Assembly: GCA_046533775.1 (NCBI GenBank)
Contig: JAWDOO010000016.1
Span: forward strand, 1 to 6,114
Length of the DNA stretch: 6,114 nt
Source of the DNA: Candidatus Nanopusillus sp.
GTDB taxonomy: Archaea > Nanobdellota > Nanobdellia > Nanobdellales > Nanobdellaceae
Direction: 5' to 3'
The notes under the pieces were generated by a model. That model was given only the letters and a program-made list of their open reading frames with translations. It was not told the origin of the DNA and did no database searches. Positions 1 through 5,821 of this stretch are shown here, piece by piece. A program made the translations under genes and the position numbers. Position 1 is the stretch's first letter. Every line of letters begins with the position of its first letter.

Positions 1-202
1 GGATTAATGTAGATTCATACAAATTTAATATATTTTCAAATAAATCATTTCCATATAATAATTTATATATTTCTCCATATTGTGGGAAAGTATTTGAATA
101 AAATTGAAATTCTTTATCTAACAAATCTAAGTTAGAAGCAAAATAAAATAAAATTAATAATAATACAACAATTGTATATAAATATAATTGACTACGAGCC
201 AT
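1..202 (-). CDS. Hypothetical secreted or membrane-anchored protein; only the N-terminal 67 codons are present (runs off the left edge); not in the supplied ORF track
   Basis: Minus-strand ATG at 202..200 opens a frame with no stop through position 2: MARSQLYLYTIVVLLLILFYFASNLDLLDKEFQFYSNTFPQYGEIYKLLYGNDLFENILNLYESTLI. A 67-codon open frame is unlikely by chance in DNA this AT-rich and stop-prone. The N-terminus (M-A-R-S followed by about 20 hydrophobic residues and then S-N-L) parallels the N-terminus of the upstream 604-aa ORF. The start overlaps that ORF's stop (ATGGCTCGTAG). Confidence 0.6.
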   Translation of the reverse strand, partial: MARSQLYLYTIVVLLLILFYFASNLDLLDKEFQFYSNTFPQYGEIYKLLYGNDLFENILNLYESTLI

Positions 203-2006
203 ATACAGAGAATTTAGAATATCCTAGGCCATATGGATAAACTATACTGCTATAAAATTTATACCCACTTGGTACTGGATTTACATTGAAATAACTCCAA
301 TAATTATATAATATTATTGGTATTAATTGATCTGAATAATAAACATTTACAGGATAACATTGGCTAATATTAATATTCGAAGATAATATATTATTCTGAT
401 AATTTGGGGGAATTGAATAATCTATTATTAATTGAGAATATGGTTCTACAAAATTTATAGATTGTGGATTATTATATGCCTGCATATTATAATTTGGTTC
501 ATTTCCATATAATATTCCTGTATTTGGATTATAATTTTTACCATAATAAATTATTACTGGATTGTAATAATTAAAATCTTCTGAATAATATATATTTTCC
601 AATTGATTTATTGTTAATGGTTGATTATAAAATGCAATTACATATATATTTCCTAAAAATGTACATTGAGGGGAATACATTGTTGTAGGGGTTCCTAAAT
701 ATATTGTTTCATTTGGTGGATAATATAAATTTAAAGGTTGCAAAGATGACCAACCAGGATAAGGTATTATTTGACCATAATATATTCCGCTTTGATTTAT
801 AAATCCTCCATAAAATTGCCCATTACTACTATTATATTCCCAAAAAACAAAAACCCACTGATTCATTGGTAAAGGATAATTTGGTAAATATCCTATATTA
901 CTTTCATCTACCCCCAAATAATATTGACCATTGTTTGGTAAAATTATTTGACTAAATGTAGAACCTGCATAATCATTTAATCCAGATAAATGAACTATTG
1001 CGCTTATATAATTTTCTCCAGAAGCACAGGAAGAAGAATAATAGTCATTTATATAAATCCAAGCAACAACAGTTATTGATGTATTACCTGATAATTGAGA
1101 AGGATAATATGAAGAATTTATTAATTGGAAATATTGATTATTATTTGTAAAAGCTATAACATTAGATTGATCTAAACATTGGGGAGAAATATATAATGTT
1201 TCCCAACTAAATGGAAATATAACATATTGTACTAATTGAGCAGGTAAATTGTTCACCAATTTATAATTGTTTGTTAAATTTAAATAATTAAAATTAGTAT
1301 TTTCAGCCCTAAATAATATAATTATTGGTTGTGTATAACCATTAGGTAAATTTAATGATATATTTATTATTGGAACATATCCATTAGATGTACTAATATA
1401 AGATACATTTAAATATTGGATTTGTATTGGATATAAATCAATATTATATGCATAAAATGAATATGGATCTATAGTATAATTAACAAAACTTGTTACATTT
1501 GTTAAATTTAAATATATAGACAAATTGTTACCAGAATAACTAGATATTGCTACCCCATACCAATCATTACTTGACGCAATATTTCCACATAAATTTCCTT
1601 GTGAATTATATATTAAGAAAAAATTATTAACTTGTCCACTTATATTTAAAGAATATAATAAATTGTTTCCTAAATATGGGAAGGGAAATAAAAATTCATA
1701 ACATGTTGAATTATAAGTATTATAAAAATTCAAACTATAATCTATAGTTTGCTTTAAATCATAATAATTAAAATAACCTGATAACATACTATTATATATT
1801 GAAGCTAATACATCGAATTGATTTGTCTCCAAATAACTAAGAAATTTATCATTATAAGTATTTGCTAAGGCGGTATATAATGTATATTTTTTATTAAATA
1901 TATTTATATATTGTGAAGGATTTTGGGGAAATTGTAAATTTGTTAAGAATACTAATATTAAAGATACAACCAATATTATTTCTACTAAATAATTAAATGA
2001 TCTCAT
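192..2006 (-). CDS. Large Asn/Tyr/Ser-rich, very low-charge extracellular or surface protein. It has an N-terminal hydrophobic signal/anchor and two tandem LamG/concanavalin-A-like (jelly-roll lectin fold) segments.
   Basis: 604-codon ORF; the next in-frame upstream codon set hits TAA, so ATG 2006 is the first possible start. The N-terminus is MRS followed by about 20 hydrophobic residues (FNYLVEIILVVSLILVFLTNL). Residues ~283-475 follow the Laminin_G_3-type pattern: F-x-NNNQY-x-Q-L...SITVVAWIY...NQWVFVFWEYNSSNGQFYGGFIN...ETIYLGT...FLGNIYVIAFYNQPLTINQLENIY. My hand count gives about 15 N-x-S/T sequons, 6 Cys, and only about 10 Lys+Arg in 604 aa. There is no C-terminal TM segment. Confidence 0.75.
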   Translation of the reverse strand: MRSFNYLVEIILVVSLILVFLTNLQFPQNPSQYINIFNKKYTLYTALANTYNDKFLSYLETNQFDVLASIYNSMLSGYFNYYDLKQTIDYSLNFYNTYNSTCYEFLFPFPYLGNNLLYSLNISGQVNNFFLIYNSQGNLCGNIASSNDWYGVAISSYSGNNLSIYLNLTNVTSFVNYTIDPYSFYAYNIDLYPIQIQYLNVSYISTSNGYVPIINISLNLPNGYTQPIIILFRAENTNFNYLNLTNNYKLVNNLPAQLVQYVIFPFSWETLYISPQCLDQSNVIAFTNNNQYFQLINSSYYPSQLSGNTSITVVAWIYINDYYSSSCASGENYISAIVHLSGLNDYAGSTFSQIILPNNGQYYLGVDESNIGYLPNYPLPMNQWVFVFWEYNSSNGQFYGGFINQSGIYYGQIIPYPGWSSLQPLNLYYPPNETIYLGTPTTMYSPQCTFLGNIYVIAFYNQPLTINQLENIYYSEDFNYYNPVIIYYGKNYNPNTGILYGNEPNYNMQAYNNPQSINFVEPYSQLIIDYSIPPNYQNNILSSNINISQCYPVNVYYSDQLIPIILYNYWSYFNVNPVPSGYKFYSSIVYPYGLGYSKFSVYGS

Positions 2007-2029
2007 ATACCTATTATGAAAAAAATAAG

Positions 2030-2040
2030 TTTATATATTT
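2030..2040. promoter_or_regulatory. Putative shared, near-palindromic TATA element in the 53-bp divergent spacer
   Basis: TTTATATATTT (2030..2040) lies about 26-28 nt from both divergent start codons (ATG 2006 on - and ATG 2060 on +). It is flanked by A-runs on each transcribed strand (2019..2025 on +; 2038..2044 read as A on -), which could act as BRE-like purine tracts. The spacing fits leaderless transcripts. In DNA this AT-rich, TATA-like strings are common. Confidence 0.35.
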
Positions 2041-2059
2041 TTTTAAGAATATGTAAAAA

Positions 2060-2938
2060 ATGAGTATATTAATGAAAATCTTATCATTTATAGAAAAAAA
2101 TTACAAGAAGTTTTTAATAATTTCTATATCAATATTTGCAATATTTTTTGGAATAATATTATTTAATTACTTTAAGTACGGTTATATAATTAACAAATCT
2201 ATTACAATTTCTGGAGGTTATATAACATTAATAAATAATAATTATCATATAACAAATTCAGAAATACAAAATGTATTAAATCAAATGAATGTTACTAATT
2301 ATATATTATATAATACACCAAATATTGTTTATATTGAATCAGGAAAACAAATTAATGAAACACTATTAATTAATTTATTTAACCAGGATTATAATATTAA
2401 ATTATCTCCTACAGATATATCAGTACAACAATATAGTTCTTTAGTAGGTAATCTTATATTTAATCAATTTTTATTCTTTGTAATTTTAACTATGATACTT
2501 ACAGCATTTGTAATATTTATAGCATTTAGAGCTTCTAAGATTACTTTAAATATAATATCTACAATATTATTTGATGTTGTTGGATTATTATCAATATTAT
2601 CTATGACAAAATATCCTATAGGAGCGAATGGATTTATTGGAATGCTAATGATTTTAGGATTTGCAATTGATAATAATGTAGTATTATCAACAAATATAGT
2701 AAAGGAAAAAGATAAACCATTTATTGAAAGGGTAAGAATGTCTTTTAGGGTTGGAATGTTAATGGAAGTTATTGCATTATATACATTACTTTTATTATAT
2801 TTTATAGTACCGGAACCATCAGTTGACGAATTTGCATTTGTATTATCTGTTGCAATAATATTAGATTTATTATATTATCTTATTGGAAATATACCATTAT
2901 ATAAATATTTTGAAGCTAAAAAAGAACAAGAAAACTAA
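2060..2938 (+). CDS. secF: SecF-like protein-export membrane protein (SecD/SecF family six-TM unit)
   Basis: 292 aa with the SecF topology: TM1 (res ~17-37), a ~90-aa extracytoplasmic loop, then five clustered TMs. After TM1, SITISGGYITL resembles the GIDFTGGT motif of SecF/SecD. LGFAIDNNVVLSTNIVKE sits where the G-x-S-V-D-D-x-IV-x-x-DRIRE segment lies. Length matches archaeal SecF (~280-300 aa) rather than SecD. Confidence 0.6.
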   Translation: MSILMKILSFIEKNYKKFLIISISIFAIFFGIILFNYFKYGYIINKSITISGGYITLINNNYHITNSEIQNVLNQMNVTNYILYNTPNIVYIESGKQINETLLINLFNQDYNIKLSPTDISVQQYSSLVGNLIFNQFLFFVILTMILTAFVIFIAFRASKITLNIISTILFDVVGLLSILSMTKYPIGANGFIGMLMILGFAIDNNVVLSTNIVKEKDKPFIERVRMSFRVGMLMEVIALYTLLLLYFIVPEPSVDEFAFVLSVAIILDLLYYLIGNIPLYKYFEAKKEQEN

Positions 2939-3393
2939 ACATCAACAACAATTTCTGCACTCCAATAGGTTTTCATTATTTTCGTAATATTTATATCATG
3001 TAAAGTAACTGCTTTAACTTCTTTTTTAAATCCATGTTTTTCTTTATCGTATTTTTCTCCATAAACCTCAAATCTGCATACCCATTTATATTTTTTACTT
3101 TCAACCCTAACTCTCTTTAAATTTTTTACTCTTATATCTCTTACAGCAAACTTATCTTTATAAAAAACCTCTTCTAAACATATTCTAGCAACATTATATA
3201 TAATTTCCAATATATTTTTTCCTTCAATTACAAATTGTTTCGATTCTTTTTTCTCAACTTTCTCATTATCGTATATAATATTAAACATTCCCAATATTAA
3301 TGCCTCAATTGCTCTCTTTGGTGTATTCCCATAACCAACAATCTTTATATCTGCAGTATGATCTTCATATTCATATTCCCTCAAAACAGTCAT
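2935..3393 (-). CDS. Archease (activator/chaperone of the RtcB tRNA-splicing ligase and RNA-modifying enzymes)
   Basis: 152 aa. The N-terminal YEYEDHTADIKIVGYG carries the archease signature (E-x-x-x-HTAD-x-x-x-x-x-x-G). Size and the C-terminal KAVTLHDINI...AEIVVDV are typical of the family. Confidence 0.85.
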   Translation of the reverse strand: MTVLREYEYEDHTADIKIVGYGNTPKRAIEALILGMFNIIYDNEKVEKKESKQFVIEGKNILEIIYNVARICLEEVFYKDKFAVRDIRVKNLKRVRVESKKYKWVCRFEVYGEKYDKEKHGFKKEVKAVTLHDINITKIMKTYWSAEIVVDV

Positions 3394-3414
3394 ATTAAAA
3401 ATATTTTTAAATAA

Positions 3415-3423
3415 TTTTATAAA
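3415..3423 (-). promoter_or_regulatory. Putative TATA box for archease
   Basis: The minus strand reads TTTATAAAA, centred about 26 nt upstream of the archease ATG (3393). This is consistent with a leaderless mRNA. It lies directly after the D box of the sRNA. Confidence 0.35.
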
Positions 3424-3475
3424 TCAGTAGACCGACAATTCATCATTTTTCAGATTTTACATTCTCATCATAAAA
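3421..3475 (-). ncRNA. C/D box sRNA (2'-O-methylation guide RNA) with complete C, D', C' and D boxes
   Basis: The minus strand reads 5'-uuuu AUGAUGA gaauguaaaau CUGA aaa AUGAUGA auugucggucua CUGA uuu-3'. C box is at 3471..3465 and D' at 3453..3450. C' is at 3446..3440 and D at 3427..3424. The guides are 11 nt (3464..3454) and 12 nt (3439..3428), and the D'-C' loop is 3 nt. This is the canonical archaeal C/D sRNA geometry, about 50-55 nt in total. The D guide region is the most GC-rich stretch of the spacer. Confidence 0.8.
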
Positions 3476-3477
3476 GA

Positions 3478-3505
3478 TAAATATATTAAAATTTTTAAAT
3501 AAATA
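3478..3505. promoter_or_regulatory. Putative interleaved divergent TATA elements, one for the PEBP gene (+) and one for the C/D sRNA (-)
   Basis: AAATATATTAAAA (about 3478..3490, +) is centred ~27 nt upstream of ATG 3512. On the minus strand, TTTATTTAAA (about 3503..3494) is centred ~26 nt upstream of a start a few nt 5' of the C box. Both calls rest on spacing in extremely AT-rich DNA, so support is weak. Confidence 0.25.
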
Positions 3506-3511
3506 TATTTT

Positions 3512-4018
3512 ATGGAAATATTGGATATAAAATTACCCGACAATATAATAAAAGTAAATGTATATTCAAGTTCTTTTAGAGATTTAGAAAAAATACCAAA
3601 GGATTATACATGTGAAGGAAAAAACATATCATTTCCAATAGTAATTGAAGAAATACCAAACAATACAAAAAGTATGTTATTATTTGTAGAAGATCCTGAT
3701 GCACCTGGTGGTATATTTAAACACTGGATTGCATATATAAATAAACCAATAAAAAATATACCTCCAGGAATAAAAAAGGAAAGAATTGTTAAAATAGATG
3801 ATGTACAAATTATTCAGGGTAAAAATGATTTTGGAAAAATTGGATATGATGGTCCATGTCCTCCAAAAGGTCATGTTAAACATAGATATTATACAATAAT
3901 ATTATTTCTAAATAAAGAATTATATATAGATGGATGGTTCTTTGATGATTTTATTAGATATGTAAAGGAAGAAAATATTATTGGATATGGATATTTTATA
4001 GGTACATATGAAAGATAA
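3512..4018 (+). CDS. PEBP-family protein (YbhB/YbcL, Raf-kinase-inhibitor-like)
   Basis: 168 aa carrying the family motifs: LLFVEDPDAPGG (DPDAP), HW, GYDGPCPPKGHVKHRYYTIILFL (G-P-x-P-P-x-G-x-HRY). Size is typical of prokaryotic YbhB-type PEBPs. Confidence 0.85.
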   Translation: MEILDIKLPDNIIKVNVYSSSFRDLEKIPKDYTCEGKNISFPIVIEEIPNNTKSMLLFVEDPDAPGGIFKHWIAYINKPIKNIPPGIKKERIVKIDDVQIIQGKNDFGKIGYDGPCPPKGHVKHRYYTIILFLNKELYIDGWFFDDFIRYVKEENIIGYGYFIGTYER

Positions 4019-4037
4019 TTTTTTTAATATTTTTATC
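4019..4037 (+). promoter_or_regulatory. T-rich spacer: probable oligo-T terminator for the PEBP gene, overlapping a TATA-like element for rps15
   Basis: Seven consecutive T (4019..4025) start right after the TAA stop, matching the archaeal oligo-T termination signal. TTTTTAATATTTTTA follows, centred ~22-26 nt upstream of ATG 4050. The whole spacer is only 31 bp. Confidence 0.3.
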
Positions 4038-4049
4038 ATTTAAACTAGT

Positions 4050-4442
4050 ATGGAAAATAATCAAATATCAAAAGAACAAATTAATGATATAATAAAAGAA
4101 TTATGGAATAAAGGATATACACCATCACAAATTGGGAGAGAATTAAAGGAAAAATATGGTATAAAGGTTAAAGAAATATTAAATAAAAAATTGGTAAAAT
4201 ATGCGATAAAAGAATTGAATTTAAAACAAGAAATACCAGAAGATTTATTATATTTATTTAAAAAAATAAATAGAATGCTAAAACATTTAGAATTAAATAG
4301 AAAGGATATTGTAACAAAGAAAAAATTGGAAGAACTTGAAAGTAAAGTAAAAAGCTTAATAAAATACTATAAGAAAAATAAAAAATTACCACAAACATTT
4401 GAATATAGTAGAGATATAGCAAAGATGTATGGATATTCATGA
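4050..4442 (+). CDS. rps15: 30S ribosomal protein uS15 (archaeal S15P / eukaryotic S13e type), short form
   Basis: 130 aa. KGYTPSQIGRELKEKYGI...EIPEDLLYLFKKINRMLKHLELNRKDIVTKKKLEELESKVKSLIKYYKKNKKLP aligns with the archaeal S15 core as I recall it from Sulfolobus: RGYPPSMIG..RDQYGV...[52 protein letters not shown]. An in-frame TAA at 4041..4043 rules out a longer N-terminus. Confidence 0.9.
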   Translation: MENNQISKEQINDIIKELWNKGYTPSQIGRELKEKYGIKVKEILNKKLVKYAIKELNLKQEIPEDLLYLFKKINRMLKHLELNRKDIVTKKKLEELESKVKSLIKYYKKNKKLPQTFEYSRDIAKMYGYS

Positions 4443-5821
4443 ACAATAGATTTTTATCTTATATAGAAGAGATATCTAATAGAATAAATAAGTCAGTAGA
4501 AAATAATCAAAATTTTTTAATTATATCTTCATTAAATCCTGATGGTTTATCTTCATCAATATTTTTATTAAAATATTTATATGAAAAAAATTCTGAAGTT
4601 CATCTAACATTTTTAGATTATATAAGCAAAAAAGAAATTAATAATTTATTTTTAGGTGAAAGTGGGTATGAATATGATAACATAATATTTTTAGATACTG
4701 GATCTATATTTTCAGATGATGTAATAAAATTAAATAAAGATTTAAATAAAAAGATATATATAATAGATCATCATTTTTTATCAATAAAAGATATTGAATT
4801 AAATAATGTTGTAAATCTTAACCCAAATATTTTTAATTTAGATGGATATAAAGAAATATCTACATCAAATATATTATATTATTTATATCAAAGCTTAAAT
4901 CCATATGATAAAAATATTTTATATTTATCATTAGTTGGAAATTTATATGACTTTGATAAACCAAATAATGAAATATTAAATGAATTAATTGATAGAGAAA
5001 TATTATTAAAATATACTGGAATAGATCTTCCAGGTATATTTACAAAACCTTTATATAAAGTATTAAGCTCTCCATTTAATTTTTATATTCCAAACATTAC
5101 TGGAAGTGATGAAAAAGCTTTAGAATTAGTAAAGGAATTAAATATAAAGGATAAAGGAACTGCTGGTATATTTTATATAGATTTATCTGAAGAAGATATT
5201 AAAAAAATAGTTAGTAATATAATAAAATTAAAGTTAAAGTATAATTTACAAAGAACTGACGATTTAATAGGCGAAATATATAAGATTAATAAAAATGAAG
5301 AGATTGGAGATTTATTAGAATTATTATATAATATTGAAGGATTAATTGAAAATAATAAAATAGAAGGGATATTATATTTCATTAAAAAATATAATATTGA
5401 TATTTTAAGAGAATCTGAAAATAATTTAAGATTACAATTTTCAAAATTATTATATGATATAATAAATAATAATGTACAGATAAAAGATGAAAATGGATTA
5501 AAAATAATAACAATTGAGAAAAATTATGGAAACGGATATTTTTTATCTTTATTATTAAATCTTCTAATTAGAGAAAATATAATAAATGGAAAGGTTATTA
5601 TTTTATTATATAAAATAAATAATTTTTATAGAGGAATAATTAAGACAAATAAAGATGAAAATAAAAAATTAATAAATAATATATTGAAAAAGTTATTCGA
5701 TAATAATATAATTTATTATTCTAGTTTTGATAATTTTGGAGGTTTTTTATTAGATATAAATAATTATGAGGAATTTATTAAAAAATTAAAAATAAATTTA
5801 AGACAAGAAAATATTATATAA
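4439..5821 (+). CDS. RecJ-like DHH-family protein (archaeal Cdc45/GAN homologue) with partly degenerate catalytic motifs
   Basis: 460 aa. DHH motif II (IIFLDTGS, D86) and motif III (IYIIDHHF, D110-H111-H112) are present. ITGSDEKALELVKEL matches the ITGDERKAIEWL segment of Thermococcus GAN as I recall it. Motif I reads SSLNPDG instead of H-x-D-x-DG. The DHHA1 GGGH position reads FGGF (res 433-436). The ATG overlaps the rps15 stop (ATGA). Confidence 0.8.
   Translation: MNNRFLSYIEEISNRINKSVENNQNFLIISSLNPDGLSSSIFLLKYLYEKNSEVHLTFLDYISKKEINNLFLGESGYEYDNIIFLDTGSIFSDDVIKLNKDLNKKIYIIDHHFLSIKDIELNNVVNLNPNIFNLDGYKEISTSNILYYLYQSLNPYDKNILYLSLVGNLYDFDKPNNEILNELIDREILLKYTGIDLPGIFTKPLYKVLSSPFNFYIPNITGSDEKALELVKELNIKDKGTAGIFYIDLSEEDIKKIVSNIIKLKLKYNLQRTDDLIGEIYKINKNEEIGDLLELLYNIEGLIENNKIEGILYFIKKYNIDILRESENNLRLQFSKLLYDIINNNVQIKDENGLKIITIEKNYGNGYFLSLLLNLLIRENIINGKVIILLYKINNFYRGIIKTNKDENKKLINNILKKLFDNNIIYYSSFDNFGGFLLDINNYEEFIKKLKINLRQENII

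Follow-up and report, generated by a model that had tools for sequence, protein, structure and literature searches.

The 118-nt spacer between an archease gene and a PEBP-family gene of a Nanopusillaceae archaeon (Nanoarchaeota/Nanobdellota) appears to hold the gene of a box C/D small RNA. The window (the whole stretch of DNA that was analyzed, 6,114 nucleotides) has 21% GC. Boxes, 11/3/12 spacing, the exclusion of chance, conservation among relatives, and a layout like that of Nanoarchaeum equitans sRNAs all agree, and together they lead us to regard the element as a genuine, conserved archaeal box C/D sRNA gene belonging to a known kind of RNA-methylation guide, which is how the first-pass annotation had read it. 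Taken as one whole, the best explanation, and one that we hold to be highly probable, is an independent C/D sRNA gene with one selected guide, a substrate other than 16S or 23S rRNA, and dual-guide ancestry.

In C/D ribonucleoproteins (RNPs), boxes C and D form a kink-turn and boxes D′ and C′ a K-loop; L7Ae and Nop5-fibrillarin are the protein partners, and the methylated nucleotide is given by the N+5 rule.

Boxes, spacing, and flanking signals

The element occupies positions 3471–3424 of the minus strand and reads AUGAUGA/GAAUGUAAAAU/CUGA/AAA/AUGAUGA/AUUGUCGGUCUA/CUGA; the complete C/D′/C′/D set, as first described, can be read directly from the letters. Box C (AUGAUGA, 3465–3471) is followed by the D′ guide GAATGTAAAAT (RNA GAAUGUAAAAU; 3454–3464), which is 11 nt long, orphan or decayed, and different in every lineage. 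Next come box D′ (CUGA, 3450–3453, invariant in the window's clade and in Nanobdella), a D′–C′ linker AAA of 3 nt (3447–3449), and box C′ (AUGAUGA, 3440–3446), evident both in the sequence and in the spacer alignment. The 12-nt D guide ATTGTCGGTCTA (RNA AUUGUCGGUCUA; 3428–3439), here called type 1, has a conserved core and leads into an invariant box D (CUGA, 3424–3427). Both guide spacers lie within the archaeal criterion of about 12 nt (10–13), as do those of relatives (10–13 nt), and the linker, which measures 3–4 nt in relatives and in N. equitans sRNAs too, lies within the short-linker criterion of 3–9 nt. The approximate transcript, comprising the boxes and a few flanking nucleotides, spans 3421–3475 on the minus strand. 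Both neighbors are confirmed by Pfam: archease at 2935–3393 on the minus strand (PF01951) and the PEBP-family gene at 3512–4018 on the plus strand (PF01161).

The box-and-spacing pattern occurs once in the window. It arose in none of 20,000 first-order Markov, composition-matched simulations of the window, under strict and loose definitions alike, and in none of 200 dinucleotide shuffles. Applied to the two guides, the N+5 rule gives the predicted targets UAGA[C]CGACAAU (D guide) and AUUU[U]ACAUUC (D′ guide); on recomputation, the arithmetic of the first-pass annotation proved correct for both. The D guide has 42% GC versus 18% for the D′ guide, the latter matching the background of a 21% GC genome, and this contrast is as expected if only the D guide is constrained. 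In a folding test the element had no stable structure of its own (z = +0.67). The internal D′/C′ boxes would form a K-loop, by analogy with established C/D RNP structure.

At permissive E-values, five Rfam C/D-box families were placed on exactly the 3424–3471 region, minus strand, and none reached its gathering score: sR5 (RF01304) came closest at 23.5 of 40 bits, followed by sR2 (20.6/42), snoPyro_CD (RF00095; 18.3/45), sR3 (16.5/41), and sR1 (13.5/45). These models align to the element end to end in boxes and spacing, and the similarity is limited to the boxes, with membership in none of the five. A model built from Nanopusillaceae and N. equitans sRNAs scores the element at 34.9 bits, the window sequence being in its training set. 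A weak and unrelated Rfam match in the window, to CRISPR-DR44 at 5312–5339 (minus strand, inside the RecJ/Cdc45-like ORF), scores 30.6 bits against a gathering value of 35 (E = 0.044); present in a single copy and with a GC content of 11%, it almost certainly reflects chance similarity within AT-rich coding sequence.

Flanking signals are harder to read in a region that is AT-rich throughout. TTTAAA at 3494–3499 (minus strand), 23–28 nt upstream of box C, is a putative box A/TATA promoter element of the sRNA, and the T-run directly 3′ of box D (3415–3423, minus strand) is a putative terminator; relatives have ATTTT immediately 3′ of box D. The T-run overlaps TTTATAAAA. Centered 26 nt ahead of the archease start codon (ATG at 3393), this motif probably serves a leaderless archease mRNA as its TATA box. 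N. equitans small-RNA promoters carry TTTAAA 26 nt upstream of the start, with a T-stretch as terminator (PMC3491384).

Partner proteins and sister genes were sought in the available sequence. A motif scan for fibrillarin, Nop5, and L7Ae gave no match in 310 kb of Nanopusillaceae DNA, part of a genome of ~0.7 Mb, and no mention of these proteins in Nanopusillaceae was found in the literature, supplements included; in N. equitans the partner proteins are documented, with fibrillarin as NEQ125 and Nop56 as NEQ342 (PMC3491384). A relaxed box regular expression and a sequence model with default filters found no full-length sister C/D sRNA in 277 kb, and with filters off none appeared in 83 kb, a sample too small to infer genome-wide scarcity.

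Conservation beside archease

The archease of the window is 97–75% identical to proteins of Nanopusillaceae metagenome-assembled genomes, of strain YN1 (AP031373.1, 773 kb; 23.4% GC according to the strain YN1 paper), and of Nanobdella aerobiophila (AP019769.1); the distant relatives L007, L008, and L009 stand at 59–60%. Gene order is conserved as RecJ/Cdc45-like, S15, PEBP, spacer, archease, and SecF, and the C/D element adjoins archease in 7/7 Nanopusillaceae lineages examined. Retention in orthologous spacers was a point on which the first-pass annotation had staked its proposal, and box sequences and spacing are indeed kept across these seven lineages. In the spacer alignment of the window, YN1, L005, L006, and Nanobdella, every box position is invariant, box C included; in L007–L009 the boxes are kept with the exceptions of one CCGA D′ and one AUGAGGA C′, and box C takes the form R-UGAUGA.

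The three distant elements show how the family varies. That of L008, beside archease, reads AUGAUGA-ACUGCCAGUCUC-CUGA-UAA-AUGAUGA-UAAAAAUCUUG-CUGA; that of L009 (9918–9967, plus strand) reads GUGAUGA-ACUGCUUGGUCUU-CUGA-UUA-GUGAUGA-ACUGAACUGCCU-CUGA; and that of L007 (10500–10549, minus strand) reads AUGAUGA-CAUGUCGGUAUA-CCGA-UUAG-AUGAGGA-UCCGAACUGCCC-CUGA. The L007 element is found on the strand opposite archease and just downstream of it, yet it carries a type-1 guide, and since position and orientation have changed while this guide is retained, the archease promoter cannot account for guide conservation.

Within the window's clade the D-guide core UGUCGGUCU is kept, and related forms occur in Nanobdella, L007, L008, and L009; the type-1 guide is AAUGUCGGUCUA in YN1 and UCUGUUCGGUCUC in Nanobdella, the two differing as CA versus AAC at positions 9–10. 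Between lineages it differs by transitions, one indel, and one transversion, and by these alignments it is retained in all lineages examined. The D′ guide, taken lineage by lineage, reads GAAUGUAAAAU, GAUAAAAAAU, GAAAAAUAAUU, and AAGAAUUAUGU, all different. In L007, L008, and L009 the type-1 guide sits in the D′ slot, in the window in the D slot. A MAFFT alignment of the seven lineages places the unit of box C/C′, type-1 guide, and box D/D′ as homologous, with the extra unit 5′ in the window's clade versus 3′ in L007–L009. The type-1 guide appears to have moved from the D′ slot to the D slot during evolution of the family. Guide-slot exchange and circular permutation are documented among homologous archaeal sRNAs (PMC6009581, PMC4644070).

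A second guide that matches 23S helix 93

The partner guide of the distant relatives, here called type 2, served as positive control in the rRNA search in its L009 and L007 forms. As D guides, ACUGAACUGCCU (L009) and UCCGAACUGCCC (L007) both select 23S AGGCAGUUCGGU, the 3′ strand of helix 93. L009 pairs at 12/12 positions, a result equalled by 1/1000 shuffled guides, and L007 at 10/12 (54/1000). Such pairing indicates that the family does guide rRNA modification. The type-2 guides of L007 and L009 are predicted to direct 2′-O-methylation at the equivalent of E. coli A2602, a universally conserved residue of the peptidyl-transferase center. The N+5 nucleotide corresponds to A2602, the numbering having been checked on a published alignment (C2606 being the C of GUUCGG), and the 3′ strand of helix 93 is a pan-archaeal methylation hotspot (PMC4644070).

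As judged by comparison of these sequences, the family would descend from a dual-guide sRNA whose other guide targeted 23S helix 93. That guide appears to be alive in L007 and L009, and to have decayed to background composition in L008, Nanobdella, and the window's clade.

Search for a target of the type-1 guide

Close relatives supplied the rRNA. Thirteen metagenomic contigs, retrieved with a YN1-specific 16S primer from the literature, include many complete 16S and two complete 23S genes with AT-rich flanks; in the retrieved 16S the YN1 FISH-probe site is exact and the primer sites have 0–3 mismatches, agreement that makes the contigs a fair proxy for the window's clade. Pairing was scored as contiguous pairs from guide position 1–2, a Watson-Crick pair was demanded at N+5, and 1000 shuffled guides gave the background. 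The search covered 16S, 23S, and seven tRNA species.

Against the matched 16S and 23S, the best result for the window D guide was 10 pairs including three G:U at 23S 1960, equalled in 332/1000 shuffles; for the type-1 guides of all lineages, the best 16S/23S match was equalled by 196–699 of 1000 shuffled guides. No 16S or 23S site pairs with all guide variants, and in 310 kb of Nanopusillaceae DNA there was no Watson-Crick complement of at least 9 nt to any type-1 guide. Among tRNAs, those for Phe, Ser(UGA), Cys, Glu, Thr, Met, and Lys showed no fit to the type-1 guide; tRNA-Phe hardly differs among YN1, Nanobdella, and L009 and forms only 6–8 bp with each genome's guide. For these RNAs, the check proposed in the first-pass annotation turned out negative: a significant D-guide complement of at least nine pairs with a Watson-Crick N+5 was absent from the 16S and 23S of close relatives and from the seven tRNA species. 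For the AU-rich second guides, the best rRNA match was equalled by 420–982 of 1000 shuffled guides; the window D′ guide, which matches AT-rich DNA everywhere, pairs with rRNA more poorly than 982/1000 of its shuffled versions and differs in every lineage, which bears out the earlier suggestion that it may be an orphan.

Several individual sites were considered and set aside. The LSU stretch that the first-pass annotation compared with UAGACCG of the D-guide complement is correct for other archaea, which carry UUUAGACCGUCG there (23S helix 93, 5′ strand, E. coli C2590), and differs in the window's lineage, where the close relatives L132, L139, and L140 read GGGUUCAGAACGCCGCGAGG / UUCAGAACGCCGCGAGG. 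There an A faces G at N+5, so the position is not a target, and the earlier caution in leaving this 23S site unclaimed was well placed. In 16S, a region near E. coli 990 resembled guide complements in published Sulfolobus and N. equitans alignments, but Nanopusillaceae 16S reads GAGCGACAGCAGAAUGAUGG at this place, which refutes the site. In place of the 23S domain I site GAGACCGAUAGC this lineage has GAGUCCGAUAG, which puts a mismatch next to N+5, and 23S 1077 (GAGACCGAGG) offers only 7–9 bp and fails for L008. Models placing the target in a tRNA anticodon arm (A36-G37-A38-C39) or D-loop (A14...G18G19) give 6–8 bp in tRNA-Phe and fail for Ser(UGA) and Cys; the L007 guide, with A at position 3, would demand U37 or U15. 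A single invariant target reached by G:U wobble, AGACUGG(G)CAGU, is contradicted by the L007 transversion.

By the usual criteria, then, the D guide appears to have a substrate other than 16S or 23S rRNA, a tRNA or some other small stable RNA being the most likely candidate. Archaeal sRNAs that target tRNA typically use one guide and leave the other empty, and conserved orphan guides are also known in archaea (PMC6009581); either a single-guide sRNA directed to tRNA or a conserved orphan guide would fit the window element. It is unlikely, though worth stating, that the type-1 guide directs 2′-O-methylation or chaperoning outside the rRNA/tRNA repertoire, on an mRNA, another sRNA, or a fast-evolving RNA linked to symbiosis. 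Such a non-canonical substrate would explain why the guide changes between lineages while rRNA and the tested tRNAs stay unchanged, and if it were so, the RNA would join a small number of archaeal C/D sRNAs that selection maintains for a non-canonical target only, and this in genomes of ~0.7 Mb.

Relation to known archaeal C/D box sRNAs

The closest parallel in architecture is found in N. equitans, for which 26 C/D box sRNAs have been verified by RNA-seq (Randau 2012, PMC3491384). The element aligns box for box with six of these verified sRNAs, which come from the same phylum and share the layout of box C, a 10- to 13-nt guide, D′, a linker of 3–4 nt, C′, a 12- to 13-nt guide, and D. Like the window element, N. 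equitans sRNAs lack a terminal stem and have unpaired ends; a box A promoter and a T-stretch terminator of their own accompany several of them, and in many, one of the two guides lacks a predicted target (PMC3491384). None of the 26 carries a CGGUCU guide or a type-1-like guide, however, and the window's family, unlike the N. equitans sRNAs, is Nanopusillaceae-specific and archease-linked.

[quoted passage not shown] Like these, the L007/L009 forms have a guide matching the 3′ strand of helix 93; in the pan-archaeal group the common guide lies beside D or D′ according to species and its partner is unrelated or empty, as in the window's family. The predicted L007/L009 site at A2602 is four nucleotides 5′ of the pan-archaeal C2606 site, and the window RNA, unlike this group, has wholly lost the helix-93 guide. 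The tRNA-targeting and orphan C/D sRNAs of Pyrobaculum (Lui 2018, PMC6009581) likewise combine one conserved with one empty guide, vary by indels of 1–3 nt at guide ends, and exchange slots or are circularly permuted between homologues, and Pyrobaculum sR43 likewise has a conserved guide with no rRNA or tRNA target (PMC6009581). Pyrobaculum belongs to a different phylum, and a sequence relationship to the window's family is not expected.

Alternative explanations

The idea that short motifs fell into this arrangement by chance in AT-rich intergenic DNA may be practically dismissed. The motifs are short and frequent (both strands of the window together hold seven TGATGA and 23 CTGA), but the arrangement never arose in the simulations and shuffles described above, and the boxes persist at the orthologous position across seven lineages in which archease identity falls as low as 59%; it is on simulations, shuffles, and spacer alignment that chance is excluded. 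More substantial, though still improbable, is the proposal that the RNA is an rRNA guide after all, its D guide pairing weakly with 23S AGGA[C]CGGUAAA, where helices 68 and 69 meet. Here the window guide forms 10 contiguous pairs (positions 2–11) and that of L005 forms 11, the junction is a known archaeal methylation hotspot, and the site lies 2 nt from the target of N. equitans sRNA26, whose D′ guide targets GGCCGmGUAAACGGC (PMC3491384). Three G:U pairs are needed, however, a number that Dennis et al. consider activity-compromising (PMC4644070); 20–33% of shuffled guides equal the match; and the guide variants of Nanobdella, L009, L008, and L007 do not fit a site that is itself highly conserved.

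We give a similarly low probability to a decaying relic that has lost methylation guiding and retains an L7Ae-binding kink-turn, for example as a cis-regulatory leader of archease mRNA or as an RNA chaperone. The type-2 guide has been lost in 5/7 lineages, no target for the D guide was found in the rRNA and DNA searched, and in six lineages the element shares the orientation of archease, with 30 nt between its end and the start codon; moreover, L7Ae is reported to act on mRNAs as a regulator through k-turns (PMC5539422). Against this, four boxes and exact guide-length spacing are maintained that a plain k-turn leader would not need, and the type-1 guide is GC-rich and conserved in a 21% GC genome. 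A leader also sits awkwardly with the TATA-like box between box D and the archease ATG, and with the L007 element, which is antisense to archease and lies on its downstream side. An independent sRNA gene with a selected D guide remains the preferred reading.

Other features of the window and related contigs

The gene neighborhood is tightly packed. SecF and archease converge with 4 nt common at their stop codons (2935–2938), the RecJ/Cdc45-like gene begins inside the S15 gene, the overlap being 4 nt (4439–4442), and the 118-nt archease–PEBP spacer must find room for two divergent promoters as well as the sRNA gene and the archease promoter. The 604-aa product of the ORF at 192–2006 (minus strand) is very rich in N, Y, and S. 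It has numerous N-x-S/T sequons and a hydrophobic segment at its N-terminus, and its Laminin_G_3/ConA-like match falls below threshold; it is probably a glycosylated surface protein, and relatives have counterparts of 599–603 aa at the same position.

The rRNA genes of related contigs are unusual in sequence and arrangement. Nanopusillaceae 16S (L132, L139, L140) has UUUAAUGGGACCUAACACCGG in place of the usual UUAAUUGGAUUCAACGCCGG, the 23S helix 93 region has UUCAGAACGCCGCGAGGCAGUUCGGUU in place of the usual UUUAGACCGUCGUGAGACAGGUCGGU, and 16S genes deviate at a "universal" anchor (AAUGGGACCUAACACC); with deviations at such positions, anchored searches and universal primers can miss Nanopusillaceae. 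In L132 (23S at 1415–4350, plus strand; 16S at 10290–11783, minus strand) and L139 (16S at 1412–2906, plus strand; 23S at 8841–11775, minus strand), the two genes form no operon: they are on opposite strands, separated by ~6 kb that includes protein-coding DNA, and the two contigs have opposite relative layouts, one convergent and one divergent. An intron-containing tRNA-Met(CAU) of ~101–103 nt occurs ~6 kb from archease in L001 (3890–3990, minus strand), L003 (3839–3939, minus strand), and L009 (4932–5034, plus strand), found by the Rfam tRNA model and missed by ARAGORN. Its intron contains GAUGAG, which is box C-like; the tRNA-Met intron of N. equitans was proposed as a C/D box sRNA.

Proposed mode of action and significance

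If the preferred explanation holds, an independent minus-strand gene would yield a box C/D sRNA of ~50–55 nt, transcribed from the AT-rich box A upstream of box C and ending in the T-run after box D. By analogy with known C/D RNPs, the kink-turn (C/D) and the K-loop (D′/C′) would each recruit L7Ae first and Nop5-fibrillarin second. With the 12-nt D guide paired to its target, a 2′-O-methyl group would be placed on the nucleotide facing guide base five, counted upstream from box D, predicted to be the C in UAGA[C]CGACA. Selection would act on the D guide only; the orphan D′ guide would serve only to maintain the correct spacer length, the helix-93-targeting second guide of the dual-guide ancestor having presumably decayed in the window's lineage.

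C/D box sRNAs escape ORF-based annotation, and this one escapes Rfam too. The practical value is modest, consisting of a specific sRNA and a predicted methylation motif for groups with co-cultures. The small-RNA family is conserved across Nanopusillaceae, including the cultivated YN1 and Nanobdella aerobiophila, and in the extremely reduced, AT-rich genomes of these symbionts, anything retained is likely to be useful. It would offer a compact picture of guide evolution, in which one guide of a dual-guide ancestor decayed in most lineages and the other was kept, and it flags a conserved guide whose substrate appears to be other than 16S or 23S rRNA.
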